This document shows, piece after piece, positions 9,310 to 41,935 of a DNA stretch of 41,935 bases. The stretch covers positions 1-41,935 of the forward strand of contig JAZDJU010000075.1 of the NCBI GenBank assembly GCA_043803685.1, written 5' to 3'. Each line of letters starts with the position of its first letter. The first letter of the stretch is position 1. The DNA comes from Candidatus Omnitrophota bacterium (GTDB taxonomy: Bacteria > Omnitrophota > Omnitrophia > Omnitrophales > Aquincolibacteriaceae). Both the position numbers and the translations under genes were made by a program. The notes under the pieces were generated by a model, which saw only the letters and a program-made list of their open reading frames with translations, made no database searches and was not told the origin of the DNA.

Positions 9310-9363
9310 CAGGATTTTTAATGTGTGGTATCATGTGCCAGTTACAAAACGAAAGGATTTTCC

Positions 9364-10659: not shown

Positions 10660-10680
10660 ATCCGTATTCCTCTTCCTGTG

Positions 10681-13290: not shown

Positions 13291-13858
13291 GGGTCCTTTC
13301 GAATACATGCCGTCCGTCTTCTCCGGAACATTCAAATTCGACTTTGACCGCAGAAGGGATTTGCCCCGCATTCTCTGAAGCGTTCCACGTCTCCACCCAT
13401 TCGAATGTCTGCTTGTTTTTGATATAAACAAAATACTGGAATTTTACACGGGCGACATTTCCGAGCATCGGAACGGCTCGAATCTCTTCCTTTTGCTGGA
13501 TCTGGCTCAAATTTTCCTGCCTGCGCGCAAAGGTCCGGTGCCACTCATCCCAAAAGTAGCTGACCCTGCCGATGCCCTTGTTCAACAGCGCTCTCTTGTC
13601 CAGACCCACACGGGACGGAAAACTCAGCGATGCCTCTTGTCCGTCAAAGGGGATCCCATGAAAAAGCACCTGACTGGAAACTTCACGGTCAAGTTTCTCA
13701 AGGAAAACGCTGACATCCTCAGCCACCTCAGAGTGACTGACCCGCCGCATCATCCCGATGCCACTTCCGAACATGGCGTACAAGGCCATGCCGATCAGGG
13801 CCATAAGCGAAATGACCACCAACAATTCCACCAGCGTAAAACCGGCCTTCCGTTTCAT
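13259..13858 (-). CDS. gspJ: Minor pseudopilin, GspJ-like
   Basis: Class III signal MKRKAG/FTLVELL; C-terminal W...IPSAVKVEF typical of GspJ; directly before gspK. Confidence 0.75.
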   Translation of the reverse strand: MKRKAGFTLVELLVVISLMALIGMALYAMFGSGIGMMRRVSHSEVAEDVSVFLEKLDREVSSQVLFHGIPFDGQEASLSFPSRVGLDKRALLNKGIGRVSYFWDEWHRTFARRQENLSQIQQKEEIRAVPMLGNVARVKFQYFVYIKNKQTFEWVETWNASENAGQIPSAVKVEFECSGEDGRHVFERTLAIPIANITR

Positions 13859-13859
13859 G

Positions 13860-14270
13860 TCACGGCCCTTTGACTTTCATGACGGCACCATACCGGTCCA
13901 AGCGGTTGTCCTGCCCGGCCTCTTTCCACAGGATCTCCAGATGGATCCCATAGAGCTCGGTTAGCTTTTCCTGTTGCTGCTCCAGTGTCACTTTCCACTG
14001 ATAGGGCCGCGTCTTTCCTTCGATGGTCCCTTCGGGCGGGTTCACGTCCGGGAAATCTTCGATCAGAATGGCTTCCTTCACTTCCCAAAGTTTCTGAGCG
14101 GCCCAGTTCTGGACATCCAACCTGTTGGCATAACGCCCGTACACGGCACCGCTAAGGAGATTCGCTTGAGTGATAAAAACCGTCGCCAATCCCAACAGGG
14201 AGACGGTGATCAACACTTCAATGAGGGAAAAACCCCGCGAACTTTTTTTAGTCCCAGTTAACAATGTCAT
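13860..14270 (-). CDS. gspI: Minor pseudopilin, GspI-like
   Basis: MTLLTGTKKSSRG/FSLIEVL; EG...YQW...IHLEILW pattern. True start probably 14270, overlapping the gspG stop (ORF track 14591). Confidence 0.7.
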   Translation of the reverse strand: MTLLTGTKKSSRGFSLIEVLITVSLLGLATVFITQANLLSGAVYGRYANRLDVQNWAAQKLWEVKEAILIEDFPDVNPPEGTIEGKTRPYQWKVTLEQQQEKLTELYGIHLEILWKEAGQDNRLDRYGAVMKVKGP

Positions 14271-14682
14271 CGGGCGTCCCGGGCTGACCGTCCTTGCCTG
14301 CTGAAGACAGATCATAGTCTTGTGTCCGATGTCCTCCTGGACTTTCGTACTTATAATCCCTTCCCCAAGGGTCCACAGGCTTTTTCTCCAGATAGGGTCC
14401 ATTCCAATTCCGTGCCTCGCCCGACTTCGCCAGAAGAACATTAAGTCCCTCGCTCGTTGACGGGAACGATCCGTTATCCAGTTCATACAGTTTAAGAGCT
14501 GTCGCGATATTGGACCGGATATCCGCCTGAGCCGCCTGGACTCGCGCCTGTTCCGTTCTCCCCGAAAGCCGCGGCAACACCATGGCGACAAGCGCTCCGA
14601 TGATGATCACGACGAGCATCAATTCGATAAGCGTAAATCCCTCTTTAGACTTCAAGCTCCCCTGCTGATATAGGCTTTCCAT
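14248..14682 (-). CDS. gspG: Type II secretion major pseudopilin GspG
   Basis: EG/FTLIELMLVVIIIG, ALKLYELDNGSFP, WNGPYL, DPWG, SAGKDGQPGTPDDI; GGAGGAG RBS. Confidence 0.95.
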   Translation of the reverse strand: MESLYQQGSLKSKEGFTLIELMLVVIIIGALVAMVLPRLSGRTEQARVQAAQADIRSNIATALKLYELDNGSFPSTSEGLNVLLAKSGEARNWNGPYLEKKPVDPWGRDYKYESPGGHRTQDYDLSSAGKDGQPGTPDDIVNWD

Positions 14683-15449
14683 TTCTCCTCCAGTTCTTTA
14701 ATGGTACGCATTTGAGTGGGATAAGCAAAAGGCAATGCCGCCTCAATGCTTTTTCCATCCCTTAGTTGACGACAGAAAAAAATGAAATTATCCGAGCCGT
14801 ACGCTGTGACCAGAAAATCGACAAGAGACGCCGCTTGGATATAGAAGATATCGACCGCCGGTCTGGCGCTGACATTCCGGATATCGATGGTGGTCAAATT
14901 ATCCAGGGAAAATCCTCTTGCGTTCTCCAGATAAAATTTCATGGTCGAGCGCACGATCTTCCGCTTGGCCGGTTCCTGCCATTGGGCAACTCCCTCGTCA
15001 AGCCAGGTAGGCACTTCTCCCTGAAATCCCACATAATCACGAAAAATCAAGTGCGTGATCTCATGCGGGAGAAGCGCTTCCAAGAAACCCTCCTTCCATT
15101 CGTAGCTGACAATAGTCTTTTTTGTGTAGTCGGCATAACCCTCCGACCACCCAGCTCTTCCGGAGTGTTTCCGGAATTCCTCTTTGTTCTTGTAGATGTA
15201 AATGCGGACTCTTTTATCCCATTGCCAGAAACCCGAGCGCCGTTCGTATCCGAGGTCCTCGCCGATCTTCGTATAATACTGCTCTGCCTTCCGCAGCACC
15301 TCACCGGCAAAGGAGTCATCCCCGCCATGATAAACAATAAAATGATCGCCTCGGACCTCTTTCCAAGGCTCTCCATCCGGGGCAATAGCTGCCGTCAAGA
15401 TCCACGCGCAAAGCACGATCCAGATCCTGAAAATATTTCCTGGGTTCAT
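14652..15449 (-). CDS. Secreted zinc metallopeptidase, clan MA (gluzincin-like)
   Basis: Signal peptide; LLPHEITH (HExxH) followed by PTWLDEGVA; FYxQAxSLVDFL. Confidence 0.8.
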   Translation of the reverse strand: MNPGNIFRIWIVLCAWILTAAIAPDGEPWKEVRGDHFIVYHGGDDSFAGEVLRKAEQYYTKIGEDLGYERRSGFWQWDKRVRIYIYKNKEEFRKHSGRAGWSEGYADYTKKTIVSYEWKEGFLEALLPHEITHLIFRDYVGFQGEVPTWLDEGVAQWQEPAKRKIVRSTMKFYLENARGFSLDNLTTIDIRNVSARPAVDIFYIQAASLVDFLVTAYGSDNFIFFCRQLRDGKSIEAALPFAYPTQMRTIKELEEKWKAYISRGA

Positions 15450-15457: not shown

Positions 15458-16720
15458 TTATTTCACCATCATGTTGATCTCGAACATGGGCAGCAACATG
15501 GCGATCACGATAAATCCAACCACCAACCCCATCCCCAAGATCATGAGAGGTTCCAAAAGCGATGTCACAATGCGGGTCGCTTCATCGGCCTCCCGTTCGT
15601 AAAAATTCGCGATCTCACCCAGAGCTTCATCGAGCTTCCCCGACTCTTCACCCACACTGATGAGATTGGTCATGAAATTCGGAAAACACTTCGACGCCCT
15701 CAAACTTTTCCCGAAGGACCCGCCCTCTTTGATGTCTTTGAGACACTTGATGAGCTCGTTCTTGAGGACCGGATTGCTCACCACCGGGGTGGCGCTTTGG
15801 ATCCCGTCAATGATCGCGATCCCGCTCTTGATCAAAAGCTCCAGCGTGCGTGTGAACCTCGCGATCTGGACCTTGAGCATGAACGAACCGAAGATGGGAA
15901 GCCCGAGTACGAATCGTCCCATCGCGATGCTTCTGCGGATCTTTTCTTTCCGGAACAGCAGGATCGCCGACACAACCCCTAGCACCGCGATCCCCCAGAC
16001 CCAGGGAGAGCGCGCCCCTTCGCTTACCTGGATCAATATTCTCGTGGGAAGCGGGAGCTCTCCGCCCAATCGCGAAAAGACACCTAAAAGACGGGGCATC
16101 ACGAAAGTGAGCATAAAAATAATGGTTCCGGTGCCTGTGAGAGCCATGAGCGCGGGATAGATCATGGAAGAACGCACGCGGGAAATGATCTCTTCCTGTT
16201 TCTGACGGTATTCTGTCACACGTAAAAGGGATTGGTCCAGATTCCCGCTGAATTCGCCGGCCGAAACCAGGGCCAGATACAAGGGCGGAAAAAAAGCGGG
16301 ATATTTACTCATGGCTTGTGAGAACGGCGCTCCATTCTTGACGTCCTCGTAGAGCTGGTTCAGCATCTTCTTGAAAGCGGGATTCTCGGACTGTTCGTTC
16401 ACGATCCCGATCGCTTTGAGGATCGGTACTCCGGAACGGATAAGACTCGCCAATTGTCTCCCAAAAGCCGTGATCTCTTTACCTTTGACGCCTCCCCCAA
16501 GAACGATATGGAATCCGGATTTGCCTTTTCCCGAAGAGAAACCTCCGTGGATGAAGGGAGCACTTTCTTTTTTGTTCGCGGCGCTCGTTTGTTCGATCCG
16601 CATCGGAATGTAACCGAGCCGGGTCACCTTTTCAATGGCTTCGCCGTCGGTCGAGGCCTCGATAAGCCCTTCGATCGTTTGACCATCTTTTTCCTTAGCA
16701 CGATATTTAAAAGTCGCCAT
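15458..16720 (-). CDS. gspF: GspF/PilC inner-membrane platform protein
   Basis: FKYRA start, RQLASLIRSGVPI, AGEFSGNLD, IYP, VGEESGKLD, LLEPLMI...AMLLPMF. Confidence 0.95.
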   Translation of the reverse strand: MATFKYRAKEKDGQTIEGLIEASTDGEAIEKVTRLGYIPMRIEQTSAANKKESAPFIHGGFSSGKGKSGFHIVLGGGVKGKEITAFGRQLASLIRSGVPILKAIGIVNEQSENPAFKKMLNQLYEDVKNGAPFSQAMSKYPAFFPPLYLALVSAGEFSGNLDQSLLRVTEYRQKQEEIISRVRSSMIYPALMALTGTGTIIFMLTFVMPRLLGVFSRLGGELPLPTRILIQVSEGARSPWVWGIAVLGVVSAILLFRKEKIRRSIAMGRFVLGLPIFGSFMLKVQIARFTRTLELLIKSGIAIIDGIQSATPVVSNPVLKNELIKCLKDIKEGGSFGKSLRASKCFPNFMTNLISVGEESGKLDEALGEIANFYEREADEATRIVTSLLEPLMILGMGLVVGFIVIAMLLPMFEINMMVK

Positions 16721-16789: not shown

Positions 16790-18973
16790 TCAAGAGATCT
16801 CTTCACGTATAAATTGGGCCAACCTCGCCCGGTCCGCTCCGGAAAGGTCCAGAAAACAAAGAGAGACATCATAAGACCCTTTTTCGGCGGATTCCATTAC
16901 GCGCACGGCCTTCGCATAACACCGGATGGTGCTTTGGTCCAAGGGAAGTTCGATCTCAAGCTCAATGACCGAGCCGATCTTCAGCTGTTCGGAAGAGGAA
17001 AAGACAAGCCCTCCGGCACTGAGATTTTTGGTGACGCCATACTGCTCCACATGAAAATTCCTTTTCTGAACTTCCGCGGCGGCCAAGACACGATGGCGAA
17101 TACTGACTTTCACATCGAGCCTCATAAAAGCCCGTTTCTCCTCAAAGCGCCGGTCCCTCTTCTCCAATCCAGAAGCCACAGAGGGTGCCACCACAGGAAT
17201 CTCGACTTCAGGTCTGGACGGTTGAGGAGCGACCTTTTCTCCGATCTCCGCGATCTCGTCAGGAGCCACTTCAATGATCTCTTCCGGGGTCGTGTACCCC
17301 GCAATAACTTTCTGCCAACCGCTTTGCCTGAGCGTACGCATGCCCTTGGAGATCGCGTACCGGGATATGTCACTGGAAGGCAACCTCTTCATGATCAAAT
17401 CGCGTATGTGTTCGTCCACCAGAAGGATCTCAAAAATGGCGATCCGACCCCAAAATCCAGTAAAATTGCATTTCTCGCAACCCTTTCCCCTGTATAGCTT
17501 TGCCGCATCCAACGAGGGCAGGCCGAGCTCTTTGACGATCTTCACTCTGATCTCGTCATGTTGGCCCTTGTCTTCCTCCTTGCAATGCTCGCAGATCGTA
17601 CGCACCAAACGCTGTGCTACAAAAGCTTCCACGCTCGAAGCCACCAGATAGGGCTCCACGCCAATGTCCACCAACCGGGTGACGCCACTAGCGGCATCAT
17701 TCGTGTGCAAGGTCGAAAAGACCAGATGTCCGGTCAGCGCGACACGCGCGGCGGTCTCGGCCGTTTCCAGGTCCCGGATCTCTCCCACCATGATCACATC
17801 AGGGTCATGCCTTAAAATACTTCTCAATCCCTTCGCGAAATCAAGACCGATCGACGACATCACCTGGATCTGCGTAACCCCTTCCATTTCATATTCGACA
17901 GGATCTTCGATCGTGATGATCTTACGCTCATCGGTGTTGATCATGCTAAGACAGGCGTAGAGCGTCGTCGACTTCCCGCTCCCGGTCGGACCGGTGATCA
18001 GAATGATCCCATACGGCTTTTCGATCAGCTTGGTGAAAAGCTCGATCTCCTCCTTGCTCAGTCCCAACTTTTCAAGACTGAAGAGCCGGGTCATCGGAAG
18101 GAGGCGGATCACGATACTTTCACCCGATGGCGTCGGGATCGAAGAAACGCGGAGATCGATGGTATTGCCCGCGATTTTCACGATCGCCCGTCCGTCCTGA
18201 GGAAGTCGCTTTTCAATGATGTTCAGATTGGCCATGATCTTGATACGGGACGCAATGGCGAGAATAAATTGTTTGATCTCGGGCGGCATATTGGTGTTAT
18301 AAAGAACACCATCAATGCGATAGCGAACTTTGACTTTGCCTCGATAGGGCTCGATATGGATGTCCGTGGCTCTTTTCTGGTTCGCGTCCATCAGGATCTG
18401 GTTGACCAATTTGATGACGGAAGCATCTTCGACCAGTTTTTCGATCTCTTCGACTTTTTCGGTCGCCTCCGCGGCGACTGCGGCCTGACCGTCTGAGGCA
18501 GGTGCCGCTTGAAGGATCTTCTCGATCGTCCCAGCTCCGAGGCCATACCACTTCTTGATCCCGTCGAGAATGTCCTTTTCCCGGACCAGAACCATGATGA
18601 TCTCGCAACCCACGACCGTTTGGACGGCGTCCTGGGTCCGGGTATCAAAAGGCATGGACACAGCCACAGTCATTTTCCGGTTTTCGATCTTGATAGGCAG
18701 GAAACGGTAATATTCCGCGATCTTTAGGGGGACTTTATCGATCGCGCTCTTTTCCGTCCCGAGTTGGGAGGCCTCGAGCTTCTCAAGCTTCAGCTTCGCG
18801 GCCAGGATCTTTAGAATAGCGTCTTCGGAGATAAGTCCCTGTTGGATCAAGTGCGCCGCGAGGCCGCCATGGTCCTGCCCTTCTTTTTTCAGGAGCGGGT
18901 CCATAACATTCCGCGTCATGACGCCCGATTCGACAAGCGCCTCTGCCAAGATGGTATCTATGTTCGAGATCAT
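16790..18973 (-). CDS. gspE: GspE/PilB assembly ATPase with a C-terminal PilZ domain
   Basis: ATDIHIEP, RLPQDGR, GPTGSGKST, TIEDPVEY, LRHDPDVIMVGEIRD, STLHTND, CxxC...CxxC. The extra ~120 aa has RAFMR and NLSAGG PilZ motifs. Confidence 0.95.
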   Translation of the reverse strand: MISNIDTILAEALVESGVMTRNVMDPLLKKEGQDHGGLAAHLIQQGLISEDAILKILAAKLKLEKLEASQLGTEKSAIDKVPLKIAEYYRFLPIKIENRKMTVAVSMPFDTRTQDAVQTVVGCEIIMVLVREKDILDGIKKWYGLGAGTIEKILQAAPASDGQAAVAAEATEKVEEIEKLVEDASVIKLVNQILMDANQKRATDIHIEPYRGKVKVRYRIDGVLYNTNMPPEIKQFILAIASRIKIMANLNIIEKRLPQDGRAIVKIAGNTIDLRVSSIPTPSGESIVIRLLPMTRLFSLEKLGLSKEEIELFTKLIEKPYGIILITGPTGSGKSTTLYACLSMINTDERKIITIEDPVEYEMEGVTQIQVMSSIGLDFAKGLRSILRHDPDVIMVGEIRDLETAETAARVALTGHLVFSTLHTNDAASGVTRLVDIGVEPYLVASSVEAFVAQRLVRTICEHCKEEDKGQHDEIRVKIVKELGLPSLDAAKLYRGKGCEKCNFTGFWGRIAIFEILLVDEHIRDLIMKRLPSSDISRYAISKGMRTLRQSGWQKVIAGYTTPEEIIEVAPDEIAEIGEKVAPQPSRPEVEIPVVAPSVASGLEKRDRRFEEKRAFMRLDVKVSIRHRVLAAAEVQKRNFHVEQYGVTKNLSAGGLVFSSSEQLKIGSVIELEIELPLDQSTIRCYAKAVRVMESAEKGSYDVSLCFLDLSGADRARLAQFIREEIS

Positions 18974-19157: not shown

Positions 19158-21501
<2,344 letters not shown>

Positions 21502-21519: not shown

Positions 21520-23064
21520 TTAAACCTGGATCTGACTGAAATATTCTTTGAGCTTTTGTTCGATTTTTCCCTTCATTTCCCACGTCAGTTTTTTTTCTTT
21601 CCTCAGAGATTGAACGAGCTCCGGCGCCTTGGAAACGGCGAACGGAAAAAACTCCGTTTTGAATTTTTTGATCAGTTCCGGCGTCAGAGAATCCAGGAGC
21701 CCTCTATTCAACGCAAAGAGGATAAAGATCTCTCCCTCCACGGTTTGAGGCACATGCCGGTCTTGACTTAAAACCGACGTGAGAGCCGCCCCCCGCTTCA
21801 AACCGGCCTCCGCTTCCCTCGAAAGACCGGAAGTCCGGATCTGGGACATCTGAAGAAGTTCCTGATAATGGAGGTAGGAGATACGGAGGCTCTTGCTGAC
21901 TTCGCGCATGGCGGGCCATTGGGCCTTGCTGCCGATACGGGAAACGGAAAGACCGAAATCGACCGCGGGGCGGACCCCTTTATTGAACAGCCCCGCATTG
22001 AAATAGATCTGTCCGTCAGTCATAGAAATAAGATTCGTGGAAATATACCCGGTCACGTCCCCTTGAAGGATCTCGACGATAGGCAGAAAGGTCATCGATC
22101 CCCCTTTGAGCTCCGGTTTCATACAACCCGCACGTTCCACGAGCTGGGAGTGACTGTAGAAGATGTCCCCGGGATAAGCTTCACGTCCAGGAGCTCTTTC
22201 CAAAAGGAGCGAGATCTGCCGGTAGACCCAGGCGTGCTTGGAAAGATCGTCAAAAACGACCAACACATCGCGCCCCGCCTGCATGAAATATTCCCCCAAC
22301 ATGGCTGCCGTATAAGGCGCGAGATACTGTTCCGCCACAGGTGAGGGAGCGATCCCGCTCACGACGATCGTGTAAGGCAGCGCTCCTTGTTCGTTCAGAC
22401 GTTGAACCACGCGCAAAAGACTGGCATAAGGCTTCCCGATACAGCAATAAATGCAGATGACGCCCGTATTTTTTTGATTCAGGATCGCATCGACAGCAAC
22501 CGTTGTTTTTCCCGTCAACCGGTCACCGATCAGAAGCTGCCTTTGCCCCAACCCGACAGGAATACCTCCATCGATCGCCATGGTCCCGGTCTCAAGTGTT
22601 TTCTCGACCGGTGAACGGTCCATAATACCGGGGGCTTCGAAAAACACCGGGAACTGGGCGTCGGCCTTGATCGGCCCCTTCTCATCGACCGGTTCACAGA
22701 TCCCGTTGACGATCCGTCCCAAGAATCCCTCTCCCACAGGAAGGGAAAGCGGCTCCGCACGGTTGTAGATCTTGTCCCCGTTCCGTATTTCCCCGCCCAT
22801 ACTGATCACGAGGATCTGGACATAATCTTCCTTGAATCCCATCACGACGCCACGGGAACCGTTCTCAAAATCGACGATCTGTCCGTTGACACAGGAAGGG
22901 ATCCCACTCGCGAAGACAATAAACTTGCGCACGGATTCGACGATCCCGATCTCATGGATCTCGACCTGGGAATGCGCTGCAAGATCAGTGTTTTTCGCAG
23001 GATCAGTAATTTTTTCAGAATCAGTGATCTTTGAAGGATCAGTGATTTTTTCTGAATTTTTCAT
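21520..23064 (-). CDS. atpA: F1-type ATPase alpha subunit (atypical paralog)
   Basis: GQRQLLIGDRLTGKT, DDLSKHA, PGREAYPGDIFY, GGSMTFLP, TNLISMTDGQI, RPAVDFGLSVSRIG. Likely start MKNSEK at 23064 (ORF track 23094). Confidence 0.95.
   Translation of the reverse strand: MKNSEKITDPSKITDSEKITDPAKNTDLAAHSQVEIHEIGIVESVRKFIVFASGIPSCVNGQIVDFENGSRGVVMGFKEDYVQILVISMGGEIRNGDKIYNRAEPLSLPVGEGFLGRIVNGICEPVDEKGPIKADAQFPVFFEAPGIMDRSPVEKTLETGTMAIDGGIPVGLGQRQLLIGDRLTGKTTVAVDAILNQKNTGVICIYCCIGKPYASLLRVVQRLNEQGALPYTIVVSGIAPSPVAEQYLAPYTAAMLGEYFMQAGRDVLVVFDDLSKHAWVYRQISLLLERAPGREAYPGDIFYSHSQLVERAGCMKPELKGGSMTFLPIVEILQGDVTGYISTNLISMTDGQIYFNAGLFNKGVRPAVDFGLSVSRIGSKAQWPAMREVSKSLRISYLHYQELLQMSQIRTSGLSREAEAGLKRGAALTSVLSQDRHVPQTVEGEIFILFALNRGLLDSLTPELIKKFKTEFFPFAVSKAPELVQSLRKEKKLTWEMKGKIEQKLKEYFSQIQV
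22983..23054. repeat. 4 x 18 bp tandem repeat at the atpF/atpA overlap
   Basis: gatcagtgtttttcgcag / gatcagtaattttttcag / aatcagtgatctttgaag / gatcagtgattttttctg, encoding SEKITD-PSKITD-SEKITD-PAKNTD. Confidence 0.85.
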
Positions 23065-23773
23065 TTCGAAGTGTCTCTTTAAGTTTCCAGGCAAGACTGC
23101 TATCGATCACGACTGAGCCGAGGGACAAGTAAAAGCCCAGGATCAATGTCTCATCGACCTTTTCGCTGATCTCCACCGACCGGCCAATCTTTGCGTGAAG
23201 CTTTCCTATCAAAGTTCTTTTGTGAACCTCCGAAAGCGGTGCCGCTGAAACGATCTCAACCCGGTTCACATCCTCCGGAATATTGAGCTGGCTCAAACCA
23301 TTAAAGTCCGACTCCAAAGATTCCCGAACCCATTCCGACTGCAACGATTGATGGACCTTCTCCGGCAAACTAGTCTTCAAGACCTGAAAGGTGACTTCGC
23401 GCGCTTTGCCGGTCAGCTCCTGGTTCCAGTTCTCTTCAAGAAGTTTACTGGCCGACCGTGCCCGTTCCATGATCATCTCACTTTCCTTACGAGCGCGCTC
23501 GAGATGGCCTTGTTTTTCCTTCACCCCCTCATCGATCAGTTGTTGGCGGACCTTTTCGGCGTCGGACTTGACCTTGGCGAATGTTTCGTCGTAATAGGCG
23601 TCCGCCTCCTTAACCCTCTTCTTGGCCTCCGTGAGACGGTTCTCGGATTCCTTGGTCAACGTTTCCAGACGCGAAGAAGCCTCGCTAAAATGACGCCGAA
23701 TAACCCCTTTAAGGATCAGGATCAATACTCCAAAAATAGTGATCTGGATGGTGAGTAAAAGCAGAACAGTCAT
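23039..23773 (-). CDS. atpF: F0 subunit b fused to a delta/OSCP-like C-terminal domain
   Basis: N-terminal TM, b-type coiled coil, and C-terminal VEIVSAAPLS...IGRSVEISEKVDETLILG...GSVVIDSSL typical of delta. Confidence 0.82.
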   Translation of the reverse strand: MTVLLLLTIQITIFGVLILILKGVIRRHFSEASSRLETLTKESENRLTEAKKRVKEADAYYDETFAKVKSDAEKVRQQLIDEGVKEKQGHLERARKESEMIMERARSASKLLEENWNQELTGKAREVTFQVLKTSLPEKVHQSLQSEWVRESLESDFNGLSQLNIPEDVNRVEIVSAAPLSEVHKRTLIGKLHAKIGRSVEISEKVDETLILGFYLSLGSVVIDSSLAWKLKETLRNEKFRKNH

Positions 23774-23791: not shown

Positions 23792-24019
23792 TTAAACAGG
23801 CGCATAAAGCTGGAAAAGCACCAACAAAGCGATCACGGAAATAGCGGCTCCGAATACGAGCAAAATGATCATCGCGGTAAAGATCTTGGGGGCTGCGGAG
23901 GGATTCCGGCCTAATGCCTGAATACTCGCATGCCCTCCGGCCGCAATGATCAGGGACGGTCCCAGAACAGCGATCGCAAAAATAAAAACCACCTCTAAGC
24001 CGTGTTCAATGCCGCCCAC
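23792..24019 (-). CDS. atpE: F0 subunit c-like proteolipid lacking the conserved carboxylate
   Basis: 75 aa helical hairpin with a GRNP loop; GTG start with GGAG RBS; Ala at the Asp61/Glu-equivalent position. Confidence 0.85.
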   Translation of the reverse strand: MGGIEHGLEVVFIFAIAVLGPSLIIAAGGHASIQALGRNPSAAPKIFTAMIILLVFGAAISVIALLVLFQLYAPV

Positions 24020-24266
24020 TTTTTCTCCGTTCGATAATGGCCAAGACCCGGTTAGAAAGCACCCGGACCACTCCCTGTGAAATGAGGATCTCTTGGTTGT
24101 CCACGATAATCGTACCAGAACGTAATCGACTAAGCAAAGGCTTGTGGTTCACAAGGATCTCAAAAGTGCCGCTCTTTCCTGGGAATATGACTCGCTGGGC
24201 CTTCCCTTCGAACACGACGCCCCCGGGACCGACGATGGAAAGATCAAAAGAATGCGCGAGAGCCAT
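24006..24266 (-). CDS. atpC: F1 epsilon subunit, N-terminal beta-sandwich only
   Basis: LSIVGPGGVVFEG...PGKSGTFEILVNHKPLLSRL...G...ISQGVVRV; 86 aa. Confidence 0.85.
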   Translation of the reverse strand: MALAHSFDLSIVGPGGVVFEGKAQRVIFPGKSGTFEILVNHKPLLSRLRSGTIIVDNQEILISQGVVRVLSNRVLAIIERRKSGRH

Positions 24267-27200
24267 TATTTCGCGTTAGGCGGTTTCTGTCCGGAGTCGC
24301 CATCAGACCCGGAAGGCTTTGTCCCGTCCTTGTCCTCTGGGAACTCATGTGTTTCTTTCACCTGGGACTGCCAAGTGAAAAAGAACACAACCCCCAAAAG
24401 ACCGATAAAGACCAGAATGGCAAAAATAATGAACCAAGTTGTTGCCCGGGAGGGTGTTTTGAGATTAAGTTTACTTTCAGCCAAAAGCTCAGGCGCCGGA
24501 GGTGCCCCGACCGCCACAAGCATTTTCTCAAGCTTGGCAATATCCGCCTTGACATTGTCGATCACAATGAGATTGGCCCTGTAAAGTCCGATATGGAGCT
24601 CTTTATTGACAGATTCATCCGCCTGCGACGTGGCCACGCGGTCGAGTCTGCCGAAGATCGTATCCGCGATGAGCTTCGCTTGGTCAAAATACGGCGTCCC
24701 CTCGATACGCTTCATGATCTTTTCCGTCTGAGTCCTCAACCCGTTAAGCGTTTCATCCGGGATAAACCAGATATCCTTCAATTCCACTTCGAACACCCGG
24801 GTCTCCTTGGGCGCCAACAGGACCTTGTCTTTATAGACGAAATACACGGCCTTCTTTTCGTCATATCCGAAATCGAGATCCCCCTTGTCCATCACATCGT
24901 CAGGTTTTGTTTCCTGAGGCAGATAAACCTTGACCGGAACTTCCTGAGTCTTCTTTTCGGAAGGATTCGCGACTATCACTCGAATGACCACGCTCCCCGA
25001 CGTATAAGACACGAGCACGAGCGGTTCCTCGGACCCGCCCAGTTTCGCCTCGATGGTCTTTTGAACGATATCCACCCCGTCGCGGATCGCATCTGATTTC
25101 TTTCTCAGATCCTTGATCGAAGGAGCACTACTAATAGCTTGCGACATGAGTTGCGAAATATCGTAACCTTGATCTCCCGCCAGAGTGGTCAGTTGAGTCG
25201 AGATCGCGTTCACCGAATTTTTCACATCGCCCATCGTCCCGTCTTTTTTCATCAGATCCACGAATTTACCTGGAAGGTCCTCGATGACGGTTTTGAGCTT
25301 ATAGATCTGGTCCTTGACCCCGTCCACATCAGCGCCGCCCTTGGCCATGGCAGCCTCGATCCCTTTGACGATATCCAGGGCCTTCTTGGCCGCCTCTTCT
25401 GCGCCAGGCGCCGAGGCCACCAAGCCCGCGATCGTGGTCAATGAAGTCGATTCCACGAAACCGGAACCCGCCACAAGACCTCCGGTCGTATCTTCACTGA
25501 CAATGAAGGTGTACGCCTTTCCTGCCTGAAAGGTGCCAGGATCCGCCTTGAAGGTAAAGGAGTAATTCCCGGGATTCGATTTAGTCTCCACTAGGGCACC
25601 GCTTGCCACGACGACCTTATTGGCGAAATTATAAATACTCAAGACGGGGAAAAGTCCAGGAAGACCCTGGGCCGCGATCGTCACGGTATCGCCTGCAAGG
25701 GCCGGATTAGGCGTAGAGCTTGTTTTCCAGGAAAATCTTTCAGCGGTCGCTTTCAGCTGTTCGCCGGCCTCTTGACTCGCTTTGGCGCCTTCCTCCAGGG
25801 CTACGAGTGATTCTTGAACGCTCTCCGTAAAATCGTTCACGGCCGTCTGAATCAGATTGGTCTGATTGGCCATTTCCTCTTGAATGGTCTCTGTTTGTTC
25901 CGCCAGAGTCTCCTGGATCACCTGGGTCTGATTCGCCAATGTCTGATTCAGTTCCTCAGCGACCTCCGACATCGGCTTATCTAGCACCCGGTGGACCTCA
26001 TCAAGCACCTCCTGAAGTTTCGACGGGGTCGTGATCTCAAACGAATTCGGAGTCTGATACCAGACATTGTTAGGCACCTGGCTCGCGATCTGCGTCTGAG
26101 CCTTCACCACATAGGTGAGCCCGGCCTGCAGTTTGTAGGCTCCGTTCGGATCGCTCACCGCGGTCAGCGTGGCGCCGAACATCCCCGTATCCGTCCCGAT
26201 CTTGGCAAGGTCGATCGGACCGCCTGTCACAAGGTCCACGCCTTTGTAGATATACATGCGGGCATTCACGGTACCGGTCATGAGACTTCCGTCGCGAGAC
26301 AACCACACGACGACATCCAACCGGTCACTCACAGGATCATAAGTGTACCGGCTTTCGGAAATATAAATGTGCACTGCCGTCGTTTCCATCAGGAGTAAAT
26401 AAGTCGGATCCAGTGCGAGCGGCGGATCTTGCAGCGGGTTATTCTTGCTCAGAGAAGCCAACTGGAGCATATCGCCGTAGCCCGTTTTAGACCATGTTGC
26501 GGCCCAAACGCCCGCCGGCGTCGGTTGAATGCGGGTGTAGCCATCCGGATCCGGTTGTGCGGCAGCAAGTCCCGACTCCTGCCAGATACCAAGGTTAGGA
26601 TCTGTCGATTTGACCTCGCTCACAGTCAGATCGCTCATGAGATTGTAAGTTCCAAGATCGCGGATGACCCATTTGACCTGATAATAATCGATCTTAAACG
26701 AGTTGTCCGAAACGTCCGTAACCTCAGCATCATTAATGTCACTGATACGAACCTTCATGAGATTCGGCCCCACATATTTCCCGCCTTGATCCTTCAACAC
26801 CGCATCAGGGATCTCCCAGTAATAGGACCCCGTACACGGAACCCCGGGACCGGAAGGCGTGCAATTCGGCGCACTCGCGTCGATCAGATGGATATCGCTT
26901 CCAAAGTCATCGCTGGAATATTCCAGCTTAACGTTCGGGATGGTCCCGTTCGCCGTCCATGTAATATTCTGACCCTCTCCTGTCGCAAAAATCGAAGTGA
27001 CCCAACGTTCGGCAAGATCAATGTTCGCGTTGCCATTCGGTGAAGTCACCACAAAATCGCCACGGATCTTGAACGTGGCATTCGAAACATCATACACACC
27101 AACGTTCGTGGCATCCGCGATCTTCACCCTCACTGTCGGAGAAATATCATCCGGAACACTCCAGGCATATTGACGTTGGATGGTATTGTTGGCGCCATTC

Positions 27201-30200
27201 TGTTGCAATCCATCACCGCTGTAATCCTTCACCGTCCCGGAATCGATCTCAGTCCAATTGACGGTTTCGGGGTCCCCAACTTCCTTGGTATAGTAGAGTT
27301 TGACCACGGGGATCGAACCGCCCCACGTCCAGACGATATTGCGGGATTCATTCACCCTCCAGTCCTGTCCTCCGTTCGGGGTCACGACCGTCAGGTTACC
27401 GACGATCTGGAAAGCGTCCGAGATCCCCAACACATCACTTTCCTCACTCCGGGCATCCGTGATACGAACCCGGGCCTGTGCTGCCGGAGTATCCGGAATA
27501 TTATTCCATACGAAAGAACCCACGCAAGTCAAGGCAGGAGCCGAAGGAGTGCAATTCGGAGTACTCGCCGAGATCTCGTTCGGGAATCCGCCTGTTCCGT
27601 TGGCCGTGTCGTAATGGAGCTTCACGTTCGGCATCGTACCGTATGAGGTCCACTGGAGCGTAAAACTCTGCCCGATGGGCAATTTATCAGTGCTACTGGG
27701 CAGGGTCGAAACCAGTTTGCCCCGCACCCTGAAACTGGTATCGGAAATATCAAAGCCCTCGTCGGTCGTGCTCCGGACACGAACACGAACATTCGTCCCG
27801 ATCGCGTTCGGGATCGTCCAGCTGTAAGTATTCCCGAAATCGCTCCCGTTGTCGTAAGCGTTGTCGATCACGACAGGACTTGCAAAATCAACGCCCGCGG
27901 TCCCATAAGATAATCCCACGGTCTCTACGCGCCCTTTATTGGTCCAGGCGATCGTGAAAGGATCTCCAACTTCGTAGGTGGCTCCCCCGTTCGGAGCGCT
28001 CACAACGAAATCGGAAACGATCTGCAGATTAAAATCAGAGCTATCCGTCGCCACGCTGTCTGAGGCATCCATCACACGGATCTTCACCTGGTTGGAAATG
28101 TCATCCGGAACACCCCCGTTCGCCGTCACCCAATTATAGGACCCGTCATTTTCCGTCGTCGTGATCGCCTTGTCATACGGCGCGCCGCCGGTAGTCGTAT
28201 AGGCAAGCATCACCTGGGGCGTCTTGAGCTGCGCCGAGGAGCTGGTCCAAGTGATCGTGTAAGGAGTTCCAACCTTAAGCTTGTCCGTTAAAGCGCTATT
28301 CGCGTTCCCGTTGGGGAACGTGATCCTGAACTTCGGAATGATACTGAACACATTGGAGATCGCTTCCGCGTCAAGATCATTCGGGTCGGCGACTTTAAGT
28401 TTCACGCCAACGTCTTTATTGTCTTCAATATCAGGCACGACCCAGGAGTAACAACCCATCGTCGGATTGCTGGTGCAGCTATCCGTATTCGGCACGATCC
28501 CATCGGCGGTCGGTTCGATCATGCGCGTATCAGAAAAGAAGTTGTCCGGTGAATACGTCAACTTGACGTTCGGGATGTTGCCCTGTTTGGTCCAGAAGAT
28601 GTTATAGGTTTCCCCGATCTCGACCGGCACGGAACCGATGTTGGGATCCATGGTGAATGTCGCGCGAATAATAAAGGACGTGGCCGACGTATTGGCTGTA
28701 TCGATATCATTCAGATCGGAGATCCGGATCTTCGCGGTCGGCGACACGTGATCCACGCTTACCGCCCAAGGGTGACTTCCGTCATTGGCCGTATTGGCCG
28801 CGATCAACTTGTCAAAGGTCGGCTCCGCGTCGTCCCCGTTCAGCGCAAGATCGATACGGACGTTATTGACGCCCGTCCCCCATTTGTTCCAGGTGATCGT
28901 GGTGGTCGGTCCCGCCATGACCGTTTCACCGCCATCCGGCGCGGTCACGTCGAAACGCGCCATGATCTTGAAATTTGCCGGCGAATTCCGCATCACGGAA
29001 GGTCCGTCCACGTTCTGGATCTGGATACGAGAATTCGGGCTGAGATTGTCGGGGATTGTCCAGGCAAAGAGCCCTGTATTGGAAACATAGTAATCCCCGC
29101 GCAAGGGATTCAGGATCGGCACCCAGGGACCAGTCGTTCCATCCGTAGAATAGAACAGATAGACCATGTTCTTCTTCACAAGATCGTTGGACCAATCGGT
29201 ACCGTTCTTCAACCAGGTGATGTTCTTGATCGAATTCACGCCCCATTTGTCAGCCGCTCCCGCAGGTGCGGTAATCTGGAAATCCCCCGCGATCGAGAAG
29301 GCTGGCGACGTCAGATTGGTCTCATTATCGGCGGAGTCTTCGATCAGGATCTTTACGGAAGAAGAGATCGCGTCAGGAACGGTCCAAGCGTACGAACCTC
29401 CGCTCCCTCCATCTGCGATCGGCCCTCCCGTATTGATCAGGGTCCAAGGGGCAGCGCCGGTCTTGGAGTAGCGCAGATTCACGCTTGGCACCAACCCCTG
29501 CGTCGCCCAAACAATGTTCCTCGTGGGATTGGCGATACCCCCCTCTGTCACATACCAGGTATCACCGTTGGCCGGCGCGGTGAACGAGAAACTACCCACG
29601 ATCTTGAACGCATCCGTCACGGCTGGCGTAGCTCCGCTATCGGTAATGAGATCGCTTATCCGGATCTTGGCGGTCGGCGTCACAAAAGCCGGGATCAGCC
29701 AGCTCTTCGTTCCGACCGAACCTACGATCGACGCGCTGATCGGCGGATCGATCCAGGTCGCCCCGTCATTGATCGAGTATTCGATCTTCAGATTCGAGAT
29801 CGAGCCGTCCATATGCCATGTAATGTTCTTGGTATCCCCCACACCCCATCGCTGAGTGCTGTCGGGTTGATCGATATAGATCTTCCCTGCGACCCTGACC
29901 TTCACGGTCCTGGTCACAGCATCCGGGTCCGTCGAATCCTTGATCTTCAGGAATACATTCTTGGAGATCGTATCCGGAACGATCCAGTTGAACGTATTCT
30001 CGTTCAGAACCGCGGTCGCCGGGGTCACCGGATTATTATTGACTAGCATCGGATTATAAGAGAAATCATTATTGGTCGAGTACTGAAGATCGATATTCGG
30101 GATCGTTCCGAATGTAGACCACCTCAAAACACCCGTGCTCCCGACTTCAAAAACCTGATCCGTCGTCACGGGGTCGATCCACGAAAAACCGCCGCGAACC

Positions 30201-33200
30201 GTGAAAAAGGGCGTCACCGTGAACACGTTCGTCGGATCGCTCAGATTCGTGATCTTGATACGTGTTTTGTTAAGCGATTTTCTGTCCGGAATGCGCCAAC
30301 TAAAACTTGTACCTGCAACGCTGGACGCGGAAGTGCCAGAGGCGTTCTTGATATAGTTCGGATCCCCCGTCGCAGGGTCCGTGAAATCAAAGGCATCCGC
30401 GGGATCGGAATCGTATTCGACCTTGACCGCCGGCATGGAGCCATGCTTCGTCCACTGAACGGTTTGATCGTCCGTGATCAGGAAGATCTCGCCCCCGACC
30501 GGGAAATCAATATCGATCGCGCCCCGGATCTCAAAAACGGCGTCCGAAACGTCACTGCTCGTGAATACCGTGGTGCCATTATAGAGCGGATCGGAAATGC
30601 GAATCTTGACGTTCTTTCCAATCGCGTTCGGAACAGGATCCCAGGAATAGCTACCATCGCTCCCGGGCACTGTAATAATCGGGAAAACTTCATCTTCGTT
30701 CGAAAATCCATTCGTGGAATACTCGAGCTTGGCGTTCGCGATCGCTCCGTGACGCTCCCAGGTGATCGGTGTCGACCCATCGACTTCGAAATACTGATTG
30801 GCCGCGCCGTTGGGCGTCAAAATTTTATAACCGCCCACGATTTTGAACACGGGTGAAGCCGTGACATCCGCTTGTCCCACGGTGTTCGTACTGATCCTGA
30901 TCTTGACGTTATTGCTGATATTGGTCGGGATCTTCCAGGTAAAGGACTGGGGAACTTCATGAACTCCGGCGGCAAGATTCGCGGCCGATTCTCCCCCGGG
31001 ACCTGTGACAGGCATAGGCGTCACGAAATCATCGGTGGAATACTCCAGTTTGATCGTCCCCATGGTTCCGTACGGCGTCCACTGGATCGCATGGGACGAG
31101 TCAACTTCCCATTGATCGGTCACGATGGGCGACGTGATCATGAATTGCCCGCGAAGATCGATCGGACCCGACACGGCCATAATGGTTGGCTTATCTGCGT
31201 TCATGTTCACCGCGCGGATCCAGACACTGGGGTCGATCGGATTCGTGCCAGAAAGGTCGCTCGGGATCACCCACGGATAAGTGGTCCCGCCAAGATTAGT
31301 ATCGATATCGATGAATCCCGTCGTATCACTGGTCTTGGAATATTGCAGTTTAATAAGTGGGACCGTACCCGTCTTTGCCCAAGTGATCGTCTTGGTCTCT
31401 CCGACATACCAGGTCCCGTCTCCGGCTTCAGGTAGCGCGGGGTTGAACGCCAACTGACCCTGGATCGTGAAATCATAATCGGAACTTTCATAATTAGTCG
31501 TGTCGGACTCGTAGACGACGCGAACACGAACTTCATCGGAAATACTGTCCGGAACCGCCCAGTCCCAGCTCTTCACAAGCGGCGTGTCGATATACCCGGA
31601 GGAATCAAGGCTGACGGCCCCCGGAATATCCGTGTAGGCTCCGCCATCGACCGAGTATTGCAATTTAACCGTGGTCACTGTTCCGGCGACTGACCAGCTG
31701 ATCGGCGTCTTGTTCGTACAGGGATCAGGACACACCGTTAACTTGTCTGTAAGCCCGGGGTCCGCATTCCCGTTGGGTGAGAGGATCCTGAAATTTGGCC
31801 GGATCTTGAAAGTCTCTGCAGACTCGTTCCAGTTATCCGTGTCGGCGATGTCGATCACGCGCACCTTCACGGTATTGGAAATAGAATTCGGGATCGTCCA
31901 TGCTTTCACACCCCCGTTCAAGATATTCTCGGCCCCAATCACGTCCTGCCAGTTCCCGGTCTCCCCGCCACCGTTGGTGGAATATTCCAGTTTAACGCGC
32001 AGCGTGGTCCCGTCCGTGGTCCACACCACGTCTTCGGATTCGCCAACGGCCCAGACCTCCCCATTATCAGGGCTGGTGATATTCAGGGTGGACTGGATCG
32101 CGATCGGTGCGGAGAAACTCACGGTTTCGGGATCCGTGTAATCCGAGATCCTCACGACGATGTTCGAAGACGTTGTGTTGGGAACATTGCTCCACAGAAA
32201 CTGTTTGTTCACGGCAGGCGTCTGGTCCTTGATCTGATTGTTGAAAGCGCCTCCGCCGATCGAATACCAGATCGTCACATCCGCGAACGACCCGGTCTTG
32301 TCCCACTGGATCAGGTAATTCTGTCCCTTCTTGAGCATGATCTTTTCGGCTGGCGGTGCCTCCGGAGGCGCCGTCAGGACAACAGAACCCACGATCTTGA
32401 AGGTGTCCGGCGACAGGCCAAAAACAACTTCGCCCGTACTGGCTTTATCCACCACCTTGATCTTGGCTGTCGGCGTAATGGTATCGGCCACGTCGTTCCA
32501 ATCGACCCCCGCAATACCCTCCGTGACCACGACATCGGAGGCGATCGTATGAGGATATCCATCTGTTCCGTTATTCTCGGAATAAACGATATCGACCAAC
32601 TGGGTCTTGGTACCCGTTACTGAGAACTTGATCAAATCCGGATTATCGGAGCCGACCTTCACACGGGTTCCGCTGACGGGAGTGGTCACCGTGATCTGGG
32701 GACGGATCTTGAAGGGCGCCGCCGAAACGTTCACGATCTCGGGGAACGCCACATCCTGGATACAAATATAGGCGGTTTCCGTCCGTTCATCGGCGATATT
32801 CGGCCAAACATAAGTGTTCGACCCACTTGCATGACCTGCGTCACCCGACACGATATTCGTATAATTACAAGCTCCGGCAAAGGAAGTTTTATAACCAATA
32901 TTCACATTCGTGATGGTCCCTGAAGCATCCCAGGTAATGTTCTTGTTCGTTTCTCCCACATACCAGATCTGTCCGGATTCAGGCGCCGTGATATCAAGAG
33001 CCCCAACGATCTTGAAGGGATTCGTCGAAACATATTGAACATCGGCCTGCGTACCCGTCCCACGGATCCTGACCTTGGCTGCGGCGCTGATCTGGTCTTC
33101 GATCTCAAAATTGGCTTCACCATTGCAGGTGATCTGACCTACCTGCGGAGTGCAGTTGGTGACGATCGTATCCGGTTTGACGACAAAAACGTCCCCCGCG

Positions 33201-36200
33201 CCGAAAGTGCCATTCCTTGAATAGTGAAGTTCGACCGGCGTGAAAGTCCCGGTCGAAGTCCATTGGATCTTTGGCGTCGACCCCACGGCCCAGCTGATGC
33301 CGGCGTTCTCAGGCTGAGTCAACGCGAGCTTCCCCTTGATCCGGAACGCCTTGACCAGACCCGGATCATTTTTAACGTTCGTGTTCTCCCGGTGCCGGAT
33401 GCGGATCATAACGTCATTGCCGATCCTGTCGGGCACATCCCACGGGAACGTGTAGTCAGCCCCCTGCGGATTGATATTGGAAGGACCGCTATAGATCCTG
33501 TTTCCGGTGGGATAATCACCATCGGGATAGCTCAGCCCGCCGTTCGTGGAAAAATGGATTTCCACATTATCGACCGCCCCGAACTTCTGCCAGCGGATCG
33601 TGTAAACATCCCCGACTTCCATGGCAAGGGTTCCCGGGTCTACTTCATGACCGGTCGGCGCAATGAGTGTTACGGTCCCCTTGACCTCAAAAACAGAACT
33701 GATCCCCTCGACCGCGGTCTGCGTATTGGGCGTCACAGCCTTAACCTTGACCCGGCCCGTAAACCCGCTTGTCAGCGCTGTCGTCGCGGGATTCAATGGC
33801 CAATCATAAAAGTAATCGGCGCCATCCTTGCAGCCCGGCTCACAACCATCCGCAATATTGACCGGCGTCCCCGTGATCTTCACGTAGTGGTTGGCCGCCC
33901 CGTCATAGGAATACCAAACGTCTGCCGCCTGGAGATCGCCCTTCTTCGTGAACTTGATCCGCTGCGGAACGTTCACCCCCCACGACTCATTGCCCACGCT
34001 CGGATTCGTCACGGTCAACGCACCCAGGATCGCGAAATCACCCTCGGATTCGATCGCCGTCCCGGCCTCATTCAAGGGATCGAATTGCGTGATCCGGATC
34101 TGGTTCGTATTATTAAGATCGGCCAATGCTCTCGGAACCGGGTTCCAAACGTAGGTGCCTGTATTCTGGGCATTGTCCGTGATCAGGTTCCATGTCGGAC
34201 TCGGGTCTCCGGAATTATTCGTGTAATAGAGCGCAACCTTTGTGACGCCGGTCACCAGGTAATTGTTCCAAAGGATCGTGTATTCCTCTTCGGAATAGGC
34301 GGTATGCCCGTTTTCGGGATCCGTGATGTCGAACGGAGCTCCGATCTTGAAAAGCTGCGCGGCCGCAAGCGGCAATGTCTTCTGTTGCGTTCCGCCGACC
34401 GAATACACATCGGTTTCATTGTTCGCGTCCGTAATCTTGATCACGCCTTTGTTCGTCACCTTCCCGGGCATCGGACTCCACCGGTAGGTCATGACGCCCG
34501 TAGGACCGGTCTGAGCGACAGTCGTGAGCGGCGTATTGGTATCCCATTCATCGCCCGAACCGGCAATGCCATCAACGCCCAAGCCTTCGTTCAGATCATA
34601 ATAGATCTTCACATTCGCGATCGTTCCGTTGAATGACCATTCAATATCATTCGTCGTTGATTTCGCCATCCAGGTCATCGGGCTCACGGGCTTTGTGAGC
34701 GTAAGACCGCCGATGATCTTGAAATTTCCGGAATCAACCTTCACGTTCGGGTTCGCCGTGTCGATCACCCGGATCTTCACGAACCCGTTAACATCGGGAA
34801 CGTCATCCCATTCGGTCGATCCAGCGTTGTTGGAAACTGAAAGCCCCGCATGGATCGTTCCGGCAAAGGTGTTCGCGTTATTGAGGTCATACAACACATT
34901 CACGGTCGTGAGATACGTCCCGGTATAGGTGAACGCAATCGGATTATTGTTCGAGAAGGCGATGATCCGGAGATCCGTATTGATCGAGGGATCCAACGTG
35001 ATCTGGGGACGGATCGCGAACGTTGCCGATTCCATGCTCGCGTTCGTGTCATTCGGATATTCATCGAAAAAGATCTTGATCTTGACTATTTCGCTGAATT
35101 CATCCGCAACGCCATCAGCCCAAAGGAAGTTATTGACCCCGTTCGCGCAATCGAATTTGACCGGCTGTCCCGCCTGGACATGCCCCGTCTCGTACACCAC
35201 ATCGGTCCAACTGCCGCCCTGCACCAGATACTGGAACCGAACTTTAGGTAATGATCCGTCGGGCTTCGTCGAGCTTGTGGCCGAAAATGTGATCGTCCGC
35301 TGTTCCCCGACATACCAGACCGAAAGCCCCGATAGCAACGGAGAGGTAATACCCGTAATCTTCGGCCGGAGCCCGAAGGTCGCAGTCGAAATGTCCGAAA
35401 GCTCGGTCCCGGCCGGAGCCCCGACATTGCTGACCTTGACCCGGTAATCTTCCGAAACCTTGAGTGCGGTCGAAGTGGTCCAGACCGGGTTCAACGAGTT
35501 GGTCCCGTCGTTACCGGGAGGGAACGACGGATCGAGGGTCACAAGATCGGAAGAATCCCCCTTGGCCGTATGCTGAATAAGCAGGTTCCCGATCGTCCCA
35601 AGCTTGGTCCACGAGATCGGGATCTGGTCACCGATATAGAAGGTCTGAGGCGAATCGTCCGGTGTCTGGAGATCCAGTGTTCCTTTAATAATGTTGGAAT
35701 GGGTCGGATTCACGTAATTTGAATCACGATAAGTGTTGAGGTTGTTGTAGTCTGAAATACGGAAAATAACTTTGTTGGAGATCGTATCAGGAATGATCAT
35801 GGGTGAGGCCGAGGGCCCCCAGGTCCAGGTCCTTCCGATACCATCCGCGATCCCGTCCACGCCTCCCGCGGGCGTGATCTCGATCCAGGACGGCGGTCCC
35901 GACATCACATAGCTGTATTCCACTTTGAATTTGAGGAAGCTACCGAGAGGCTCCCAACGGATCTGTTTGAACCCGCCGACCACAAGGTCCGTCGCGTTCG
36001 TGGGAGTCACATTGTTGATCGAACCGCTGACCTGAAATCCCCCCGTGGAGATGCCGACGGAGATACCGCGCTGCTGTTGTGGATCATCCGCCTTGACCTT
36101 CATTTTTCCGCTGAATCCCGCTGTCAAATTGGCATCCACGGGGATCATCGGCCACTGCCAGACAATGTTCGTGTCATCCGGCTGCGCCGATATATCCACC

Positions 36201-41794: not shown

Positions 41795-41801
41795 CCCCCC
41801 C

Positions 41802-41935
41802 GTTGATCGGCGTTGGATCCCAATTGACGCCGTCCTGGGCGTAATAAATGTTCACCTCATCAACACCCGTCCCCTGCGTCTGCGTCCACTTGATCAGGTT
41901 ATTGTAAGTCGTCCCGACCGAGAACTGCTGGTCCA
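41802..41935 (-). CDS. Upstream, frameshifted continuation of the giant protein gene
   Basis: Reads DQQFSVGTTYNNLIKWTQTQGTGVDEVNIYYAQDGVNWDPTPIN, nearly identical to the in-frame internal copy at ~37190-37323; separated from the main ORF by a G8 tract. Confidence 0.85.

Follow-up and report, generated by a model that had tools for sequence, protein, structure and literature searches.

The question raised by this locus is what an F-type c subunit does once its ion-binding acid is gone. The acidic residue of the c subunit is normally needed for ion carriage, and few residues in bioenergetics are conserved more strictly than this carboxylate. The window analyzed here, a stretch of 41,935 nucleotides forming positions 1 to 41,935 of a contig from a Candidatus Omnitrophota bacterium (JAZDJU010000075.1, assembly GCA_043803685.1), encodes such a subunit together with the other parts of an F1-like ATPase, a giant protein, and a type II secretion-like system. 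Unless stated otherwise, all features described below lie on the minus strand.

The c subunit and its missing carboxylate

The c subunit is encoded by an open reading frame (ORF) of 75 amino acids (aa) at 23792..24019 on the minus strand, with a GTG start. A GGAG sequence sits a few bases 5' of the GTG, and the start residue is the same in the close homologs aligned. The product narrowly passed the gathering cutoff of the Pfam family ATP-synt_C (PF00137), with 27.6 bits against 24, and scored far below the NCBIfam c equivalog models (17.5 bits against a cutoff of 135). The AlphaFold model, based on 27 homologs, was a two-helix hairpin (H2-38 and H40-72) with a mean pLDDT of 89.6, and the PDB neighbors listed for it by Foldseek were all rotary-ATPase c subunits, F-type with the exception of one of V/A type. 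These matches had probabilities of up to 1.00 and TM-scores of 0.6 to 0.75, with no E value of ≤0.001 because the chain is short.

The initial annotation had described an RNP loop starting at residue 38, an Ala codon in place of the ion-binding Asp/Glu, helix cores devoid of acidic residues, and a helix-1 GxGxGxG packing motif replaced by LGPSLIIAAGG, and each of these points was borne out. The polar loop R38-N39-P40 is encoded by codons 23900-23908, and codon 58 (23846-23848; ggc on the forward strand) reads GCC. In all five of the alignments displayed, Ala58 was placed opposite the ion-binding Glu of solved c subunits. No Asp or Glu was found in residues 12-34 or 46-70, which leaves the second transmembrane (TM) helix without its acid; E5 and E9, both at the N-terminal end, are the sole acidic residues of the subunit. 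In helix 1, the segment lgpsliiaa (within G20-P-S-L-I-I-A-A-G-G) was aligned with the glycine motifs igpgvgigi and igpgvgqgt of the solved chains (core gpgvgig or gpgvgqg), and GxGxGxG itself is absent. The product of 23792..24019 is thus an F-type c subunit without its ion-binding acid.

The surrounding operon and its relatives

The c gene belongs to a tightly packed series in the order giant protein, epsilon, c, b/delta fusion, alpha, gamma, beta. The giant-epsilon and epsilon-c junctions have overlapping start and stop codons, with the epsilon gene overlapping the c start by 14 nt. Epsilon (24006..24266, minus; 86 aa) matched PF02823 over residues 7-75 and TIGR01216 over profile positions 2-75 of 130. 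It consists only of the N-terminal beta-sandwich domain, which binds the ring and gamma; the C-terminal helical domain, which inhibits ATP hydrolysis in canonical enzymes, is absent. The b/delta fusion (23039..23773, minus; 244 aa) matched both delta and b models, with OSCP at residues 167-233, and has the architecture of a peripheral stalk, in which a TM helix at the N terminus is followed by a coiled coil and an OSCP-like C-terminal part. Its match to alt_F1F0_F0_B, over residues 10-235, reached 34.4 bits, below the cutoff of 224.7. By eye, the middle of its TM helix carries a polar residue, usually Gln in Omnitrophota-type loci (LLLTIQITIFG in the window) and His in PVC-type loci, and in the alignment this Gln/His choice, also judged by eye, did not track the residue at position 58 of c.

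Alpha (21520..23094, minus; 524 aa) scored 509.5 bits with TIGR00962 (cutoff, 484.45) and beta (19254..20684, minus; 476 aa) 555 bits with TIGR01039 (cutoff, 462.85), both passing the respective NCBIfam atpA and atpD cutoffs, and gamma (20653..21501, minus; 282 aa) matched PF00231 with 125.7 bits. Alpha keeps the P-loop GDRLTGKT and the arginine of SVSRIG. Aligned to a solved beta subunit, beta displayed Walker A (GGAGLGKS), the catalytic Glu of GER, and Walker B (DVLLFVDN), with DELSPAD where DELSEED is canonical. All six ATPase ORFs of the window are intact, and judging from these motifs the F1 part looks active.

To place the operon among its relatives, one genome per GTDB species was scanned with the peptide patterns ALGRNPSAA and TA[ML][IV][IMV][LM]L[LIV]FG as seeds. 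Relatives were encoded in at least 236 genomes, from which the 80 loci most like the window were retained. They come from Omnitrophota, Kiritimatiellota, Lentisphaerota, and Verrucomicrobiota and from bins labeled Planctomycetia. Epsilon was present in 74 of these loci, b/delta in 76, alpha and gamma in 73 each, beta in 68, and gspE in 58, and the missing genes mostly coincided with contig ends. All six ATPase genes were found in 61 of the 80 loci, 51 of which also had gspE/pilB, and in every locus the ATPase and gspE matches were all on one strand.

A subunit a was not found at the locus. PF00119 (ATP-synt_A) was not among the Pfam matches of the 27 window proteins scanned, and the ORF list contained no extra small membrane gene within the ATPase operon of the window. 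In the 80 loci, 134 ORFs of ≥150 aa matched none of the eleven query proteins; 115 of these, of 150-700 aa, were scanned with Pfam, the remainder being 17 ORFs of >700 aa and 2 scanned already, and none contained ATP-synt_A. Three or more hydrophobic segments were present in only 4 of the 134, none of which is an a subunit: one is a TauE exporter, one a DUF7544 protein, and the other two matched no family. Thus, none of the 80 loci yielded an a subunit over the distance covered, up to 10 kb. Nor did the alignments reveal an arginine or other charged residue in the TM helices of b/delta or of the module described below that could replace the Arg of subunit a.

Two alpha paralogs stand side by side in 27 of the 80 loci, mostly upstream of epsilon. 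They comprise those recorded as Kiritimatiellota, Lentisphaerota, or Verrucomicrobiota plus a few recorded as Omnitrophota, among them L026, L028, L039-L041, L046, L053, L054, L056, L058-L062, L064-L067, L070, L072, L076, L077, L079, and L080. In L065, both alpha-like genes contain all three alpha/beta Pfam domains, and in L051 and L063 both are located downstream of b/delta. Most of the 27 two-alpha loci also have a tandem-duplicated form of the module within one protein of ~450 aa.

Variation and selection at position 58

A homolog search of 5.8 billion clustered proteins returned 654 relatives of c, of which the best 120 representatives were examined. Position 58 could be scored in 119 of these closest sequences and was Ala in 71, Thr in 30, Val in 8, Ser in 6, Phe in 2, Met in 1, and Gly in 1, with no Asp, Glu, or Gln among the 119. 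A search of representative sequences with c gave 45 clusters at an E value of ≤0.001, and the same series of residues recurred at position 58 in the more distant members. Among 149 Glu-less c sequences, a single one had an acidic residue elsewhere in a helix. This close homolog, P0043, is a singleton on a 674-base contig in which E57 replaces an otherwise invariant Gly, and E57 may be either an error or a rare shifted carboxylate. Two proteins of 138-140 aa, P0122 and P0128, are tandem-duplicated four-helix c proteins with Glu in both hairpins. P0159 (583 aa, seven stretches) was considered as a fused c-ring and rejected as a low-complexity repeat.

The syntenic loci gave a broader picture. 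Position 58 was Glu in 50 of the 80 loci, Gln in 14, Ala in 5, Thr and Met in 4 each, and Val, Ser, and Phe in 1 each, frequencies that come from a biased sample, the seeds being family-derived peptides and the loci being ranked by window likeness. Within these 80, nearly all PVC loci hold Glu58. Gln and Met are uncharged look-alikes of protonated Glu, and such replacements are to be expected if the side chain has been freed from cycling between charged and neutral states. Given the retention of Glu in 50 of the 80 loci, something, possibly ion binding, may still select for a carboxylate in most lineages.

On a tree of 62 beta subunits (quick IQ-TREE run, LG+G4, unrooted), the deep clades all had Glu at position 58 of c, and at least six switches between Glu and non-Glu were counted. 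Over all states, parsimony required 12 changes, which ranked position 58 at 14 of 63 columns by number of changes. L66, Q70, and the c loop had zero changes in the same analysis. Little or no variation was seen in the loop ALGRNPSAAPK, at L66, or at Q70 (for residues 35-43 in the 80 loci, the search pattern accounts for part of this), so that the rotor interface is maintained.

The initial annotation had also proposed that dN/dS be computed. With the NG86 (Nei-Gojobori) method on an ungapped core of 59 codons, the A/T/V/S group of c gave 0.106, an upper bound with 19 of 66 pairs usable because dS was mostly saturated. The Gln group gave a median of 0.109 and a pooled value of 0.095, and the Glu group a median of 0.158 and a pooled value of 0.150. 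Values in the Glu-less lines were therefore no higher than in the Glu-bearing lines, and the c gene without its carboxylate evolves under purifying selection, with dN/dS of ~0.1. Judged from the alignments and the tree, the Ala58 state is clade-wide, under selection, and one of several independent losses of a residue that is no longer fixed in the family. The initial annotation had held that Glu in syntenic homologs would make Ala58 a case of strain-specific decay; Glu is indeed present in 50 of the 80 loci, yet all 119 scorable close homologs lack it, and that explanation does not hold.

The giant protein, the secretion genes, and a possible mechanical role

Directly upstream of epsilon lies the giant protein ORF (24266..41794, minus), which specifies 5,842 aa and runs off the window in another frame. 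A run of eight G residues at ~41797-41804 on the minus strand breaks the frame, and the same repeat (…VDEVNIYYAQDGVNWDPTPINGG) reads on upstream in another frame; because the repeat continues past the run, the giant gene is longer than 5,842 aa. Either a homopolymer sequencing error or phase variation of the slipped-strand type accounts for the break.

The C-terminal 245 aa of the giant protein (24269..25003, minus) form a module composed of a beta-sandwich, three helices, and one TM helix. Its structural model (pLDDT 85.1) placed the beta-sandwich at residues 4-76, three long helices at 83-164, and the TM helix at 186-219, followed by a short disordered tail. Homologs encoded as separate genes (25 aligned; 258-335 aa) are found directly upstream of epsilon in most Omnitrophota loci and open with hydrophobic stretches resembling signal peptides. 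The PVC-type counterpart is the duplicated ~450-aa protein, located upstream of alpha. In all, the module was found in 55 of the 80 loci, directly upstream of the ATPase genes (epsilon or alpha). It matched no Pfam family, a PDB fold search gave no matches at an E value of ≤0.001, and in the protein atlas searched only unnamed Omnitrophota clusters were matched. In the alignment, the TM helix had invariant T189, W190, I193, F199, and W211 and no charged residue. With the modeled topology, the folded part would lie on the outer side of the cytoplasmic membrane and be anchored beside the ATPase, as would the entire giant protein in the window. In the predicted cytoplasmic tail (24269-24400), many module proteins share an (A/S)-F-(P/S) motif, noted by eye ~20 residues past the TM helix, in a stretch that is otherwise disordered and charged; we regard it as a candidate for docking at the cytoplasmic face. 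The possibility that the Glu loss stems from the fusion of module and giant protein was considered and rejected, as L003 and L006-L010 have a separate module yet no Glu.

On the other side of the ATPase genes, a gap of 280 nt separates beta from gspE and the type II secretion-like system. By Pfam, the first protein (16790..18973, minus) is a secretion ATPase of the GspE/PilB type that includes MshEN and, at its C terminus, PilZ, two domains known to bind cyclic di-GMP. Their presence on GspE/PilB points to control of the apparatus as a whole by a second messenger. Several related loci encode the MshEN part on its own, in a small ORF. Pfam also assigned a GspF/PilC platform protein (15458..16720, minus) and a Peptidase_MA_2 family protein (14652..15449, minus), which is not a usual component of type II secretion operons; its position between gspF and gspG was kept in 14 of the 80 loci, and in many of the others the contig ends before this point. 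The pseudopilin block (12196..14682, minus) comprises GspG (14248-14682), an N_methyl protein (13860-14591), a GspJ-like protein (13259-13858), and GspK (12196-13431). The position of the motif at residues 116-139 of the N_methyl ORF suggests that its true start is internal. Then follow, at 10099..12192 (minus), a PilM-PilN fusion (10681-12192) and a GspM-like protein (10099-10659) and, at 3570..6899 (minus), an AAA_22 ATPase (6036-6899), a GspC/B-like protein (5401-6174), and the secretin GspD (3570-5414). A PAS histidine kinase (7481-8938) and a TPR protein (9325-9999) are encoded on the plus strand amid the secretion genes.

The reading that we consider probable is that the locus encodes an ATP-driven rotary ATPase which does not translocate ions and has a mechanical or actuating role. 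The alpha3beta3 head would hydrolyze ATP and turn gamma/epsilon and the c-ring against the b/delta stalk. The ring would move no ions, and its carboxylate, here Ala, would be dispensable because there is no a subunit to provide the ion half-channels; the c-ring would have been kept as a membrane-embedded rotor. It would most likely pass force across the inner membrane to the single-pass module, which would form, or adjoin, the C-terminal anchor of the giant surface protein, and the type II secretion-like system would be the route of the giant protein through the outer membrane. A more specific version, in which the c-ring is a transmembrane drive shaft that turns or winds the giant surface protein by way of the periplasmic module, is possible but doubtful. 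For both versions we infer that the ring assembles and rotates, that it contacts the module, and that work is done on the giant protein. The "bearing or coupling hub" of the initial annotation is a reasonable reading of the same subunit and is sharpened here to a putative coupling with the periplasmic single-pass module. Its phrase "not an ion turbine" fits the clade of the window, given that neither the window nor the 80 loci yielded an a subunit and that position 58 is changeable.

Table S8 of Seymour et al. 2023 includes at least four genomes (IDs 11, 87, 152, and 157) that have a complete "respiratory" F1Fo operon, atpB included, as well as a "symbiotic" locus; two of the "symbiotic" contigs of these genomes are L036 and L037. 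Because the complete respiratory operon is present in the same four genomes, the enzyme of the symbiotic locus is, to that extent, a second and specialized one, and through the respiratory atpB a subunit a exists in those cells. This bears on the alternative that the enzyme is still an ion-translocating F-type ATPase, with its a subunit encoded elsewhere or replaced by an unrecognized partner and with the Ala58 form a derived one that has lost pumping and kept a residual role. The atpB-bearing canonical operons speak for it, as do the Glu of the 50 loci and of both halves of P0122 and P0128, but the lack of an a subunit from all 80 loci over distances of up to 10 kb, the at least six replacements of Glu, with dN/dS not raised relative to Glu-bearing lines, and the TM helices of b/delta and the module, which have no internal arginine, make it quite unlikely. 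It is also unlikely, to a slightly lesser degree, that the F1-like head acts as an unfoldase or gate activator of the FliI/FliJ type for export or insertion of the giant protein, with the c-like subunit and b/delta serving only as a membrane dock. In most loci the operon does stand between the giant gene and the secretion system, and alpha and beta match FliI/SctN models, though far below the cutoffs. However, the atpA/atpD cutoffs are passed and the FliI cutoffs are not, the full set of rotor and stator parts of a true F-type enzyme (gamma, epsilon, c, and b/delta) is retained, and the c loop that contacts gamma/epsilon is invariant.

The initial annotation had mentioned a wider pore, for which no support was found. 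The bulkier residues that replace the helix-1 glycine motif could loosen the packing of the inner helices, but Glu-bearing relatives have the same type of helix-1 sequence and neither c helix is lined by polar residues, so that a c-ring acting as a wide membrane pore or conduit is very improbable. That the c gene is a decaying remnant or a sequencing artifact can be given next to no weight. The homopolymer frameshift in the giant gene of the window does indicate an assembly that is not error-free, but the six ATPase ORFs are intact and the loss is common to all 119 scorable close homologs at a dN/dS of ~0.1, by which this explanation is already contradicted.

The non-translocating rotary ATPase favored here can be compared with several known systems. 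Canonical F1Fo c subunits (PF00137) are alike in fold, length, R-N-P loop, and operon partners, and the alpha, beta, gamma, and epsilon subunits with their catalytic motifs are also present here, whereas the TM2 carboxylate, GxGxGxG, and the a subunit are missing. In V-ATPases, the c-rings enclose single-pass accessory proteins (Voa1, Ac45/ATP6AP1). These offer a possible mechanical analogy, namely, a type I protein with an extracytoplasmic domain and a C-terminal TM helix at the rotor ring, where the module would make contact; the PDB fold search found no homology of the module to V-ATPase accessory proteins. The type 2/3 F1-like ATPases of Mycoplasma, including the gliding motor of M. mobile, are likewise derived from F1 and do not serve ATP synthesis. 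The M. mobile motor is said to work with very large surface proteins. Beta scored 333.8 bits with the solved G1-ATPase 9io5, and the models glide_MMOB1660/1670 and MSC_0618/0619 were matched below their cutoffs (394.6 against 600, 419.5 against 850, 285.6 against 520, and 384.8 against 570). The present system keeps c and b/delta, unlike the mycoplasma clusters, which according to what Beven et al. reportedly described in 2012 are without Fo homologs.

N-type ATPases resemble the present system in having no separate delta and a b subunit of ~245 aa with a long C-terminal extension. Their gene order is beta-epsilon-I-R-a-c-b-alpha-gamma (PMC4154653), and the order epsilon-c-b-alpha-gamma(-beta) found here corresponds to it minus I, R, and a. 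The present system differs in being without a, atpR, and atpQ, and the N-ATPase models (TIGR03305, 03321, 03323, and 03324) were matched below their cutoffs, with alpha at 466.7 against 750.5, beta at 501.9 against 752, and gamma at 27.8 against 282.35. The c-rings of N-ATPases bind ions, according to the part of PMC5376962 available.

As far as the main text and Table S8 of Seymour et al. 2023 (PMC10066038) go, the "symbiotic" F-type ATPase/type-4 pilus loci described there for Omnitrophota are the same system. The contigs of L015, L036, L037, and L068 are entered in that table as "Symbiotic F-type ATPase locus," and the present operon has divergent alpha/beta genes within 10 kb of type IV filament genes, as in the definition of such loci. 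In those loci, alpha and beta adjoin pilB/pilM, and the genomes concerned also contain giant ORFs. In 28 "symbiotic" rows of Table S8, only atpF/atpH, atpA, and atpD are annotated, with no c, a, gamma, or epsilon, and the terms "c subunit," "subunit c," and "c-ring" do not occur in the main text. That text and table also do not describe the loss of the carboxylate, the lack of a, or the periplasmic module, nor do they report the system in Kiritimatiellota, Lentisphaerota, and Verrucomicrobiota. In the part available of West-Roberts et al. 2023 (bioRxiv), secretion-system genes are reported beside giant genes and ATP synthase is not mentioned. According to the accessible part of a 2026 preprint, 125 of 176 complete Omnitrophota genomes have alpha and beta but only 30 have gamma. 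This is read there as an incomplete F1Fo, which the present locus may partly explain. No published description of a carboxylate-less c subunit in any F-type system was found in a search of the literature outside subscription journals and bioRxiv supplements. Relative to these sources, as far as they were available, the new elements are the retained c-ring, the lack of a, the drifting carboxylate, the periplasmic anchor module, and the PVC spread, the system itself having been sketched already.

A large natural family has thus retained an F1 head that appears active together with gamma, epsilon, the stalk, and the ring, while a is absent from its loci, and it shows to what uses a c-ring might be put once ion translocation is gone. 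It links the giant surface proteins, the adjacent secretion systems, and the second ATPase of Omnitrophota and PVC bacteria into one testable machine. Should the drive-shaft version be true, an ATP-powered rotor would deliver torque outside the cell in bacteria that are ultra-small and predatory or epibiotic, as well as in their PVC relatives. A Lentisphaerota MAG labeled Victivallis vadensis carries the locus (L066), and as this species has cultured strains, experiments are within reach if those strains carry it as well.
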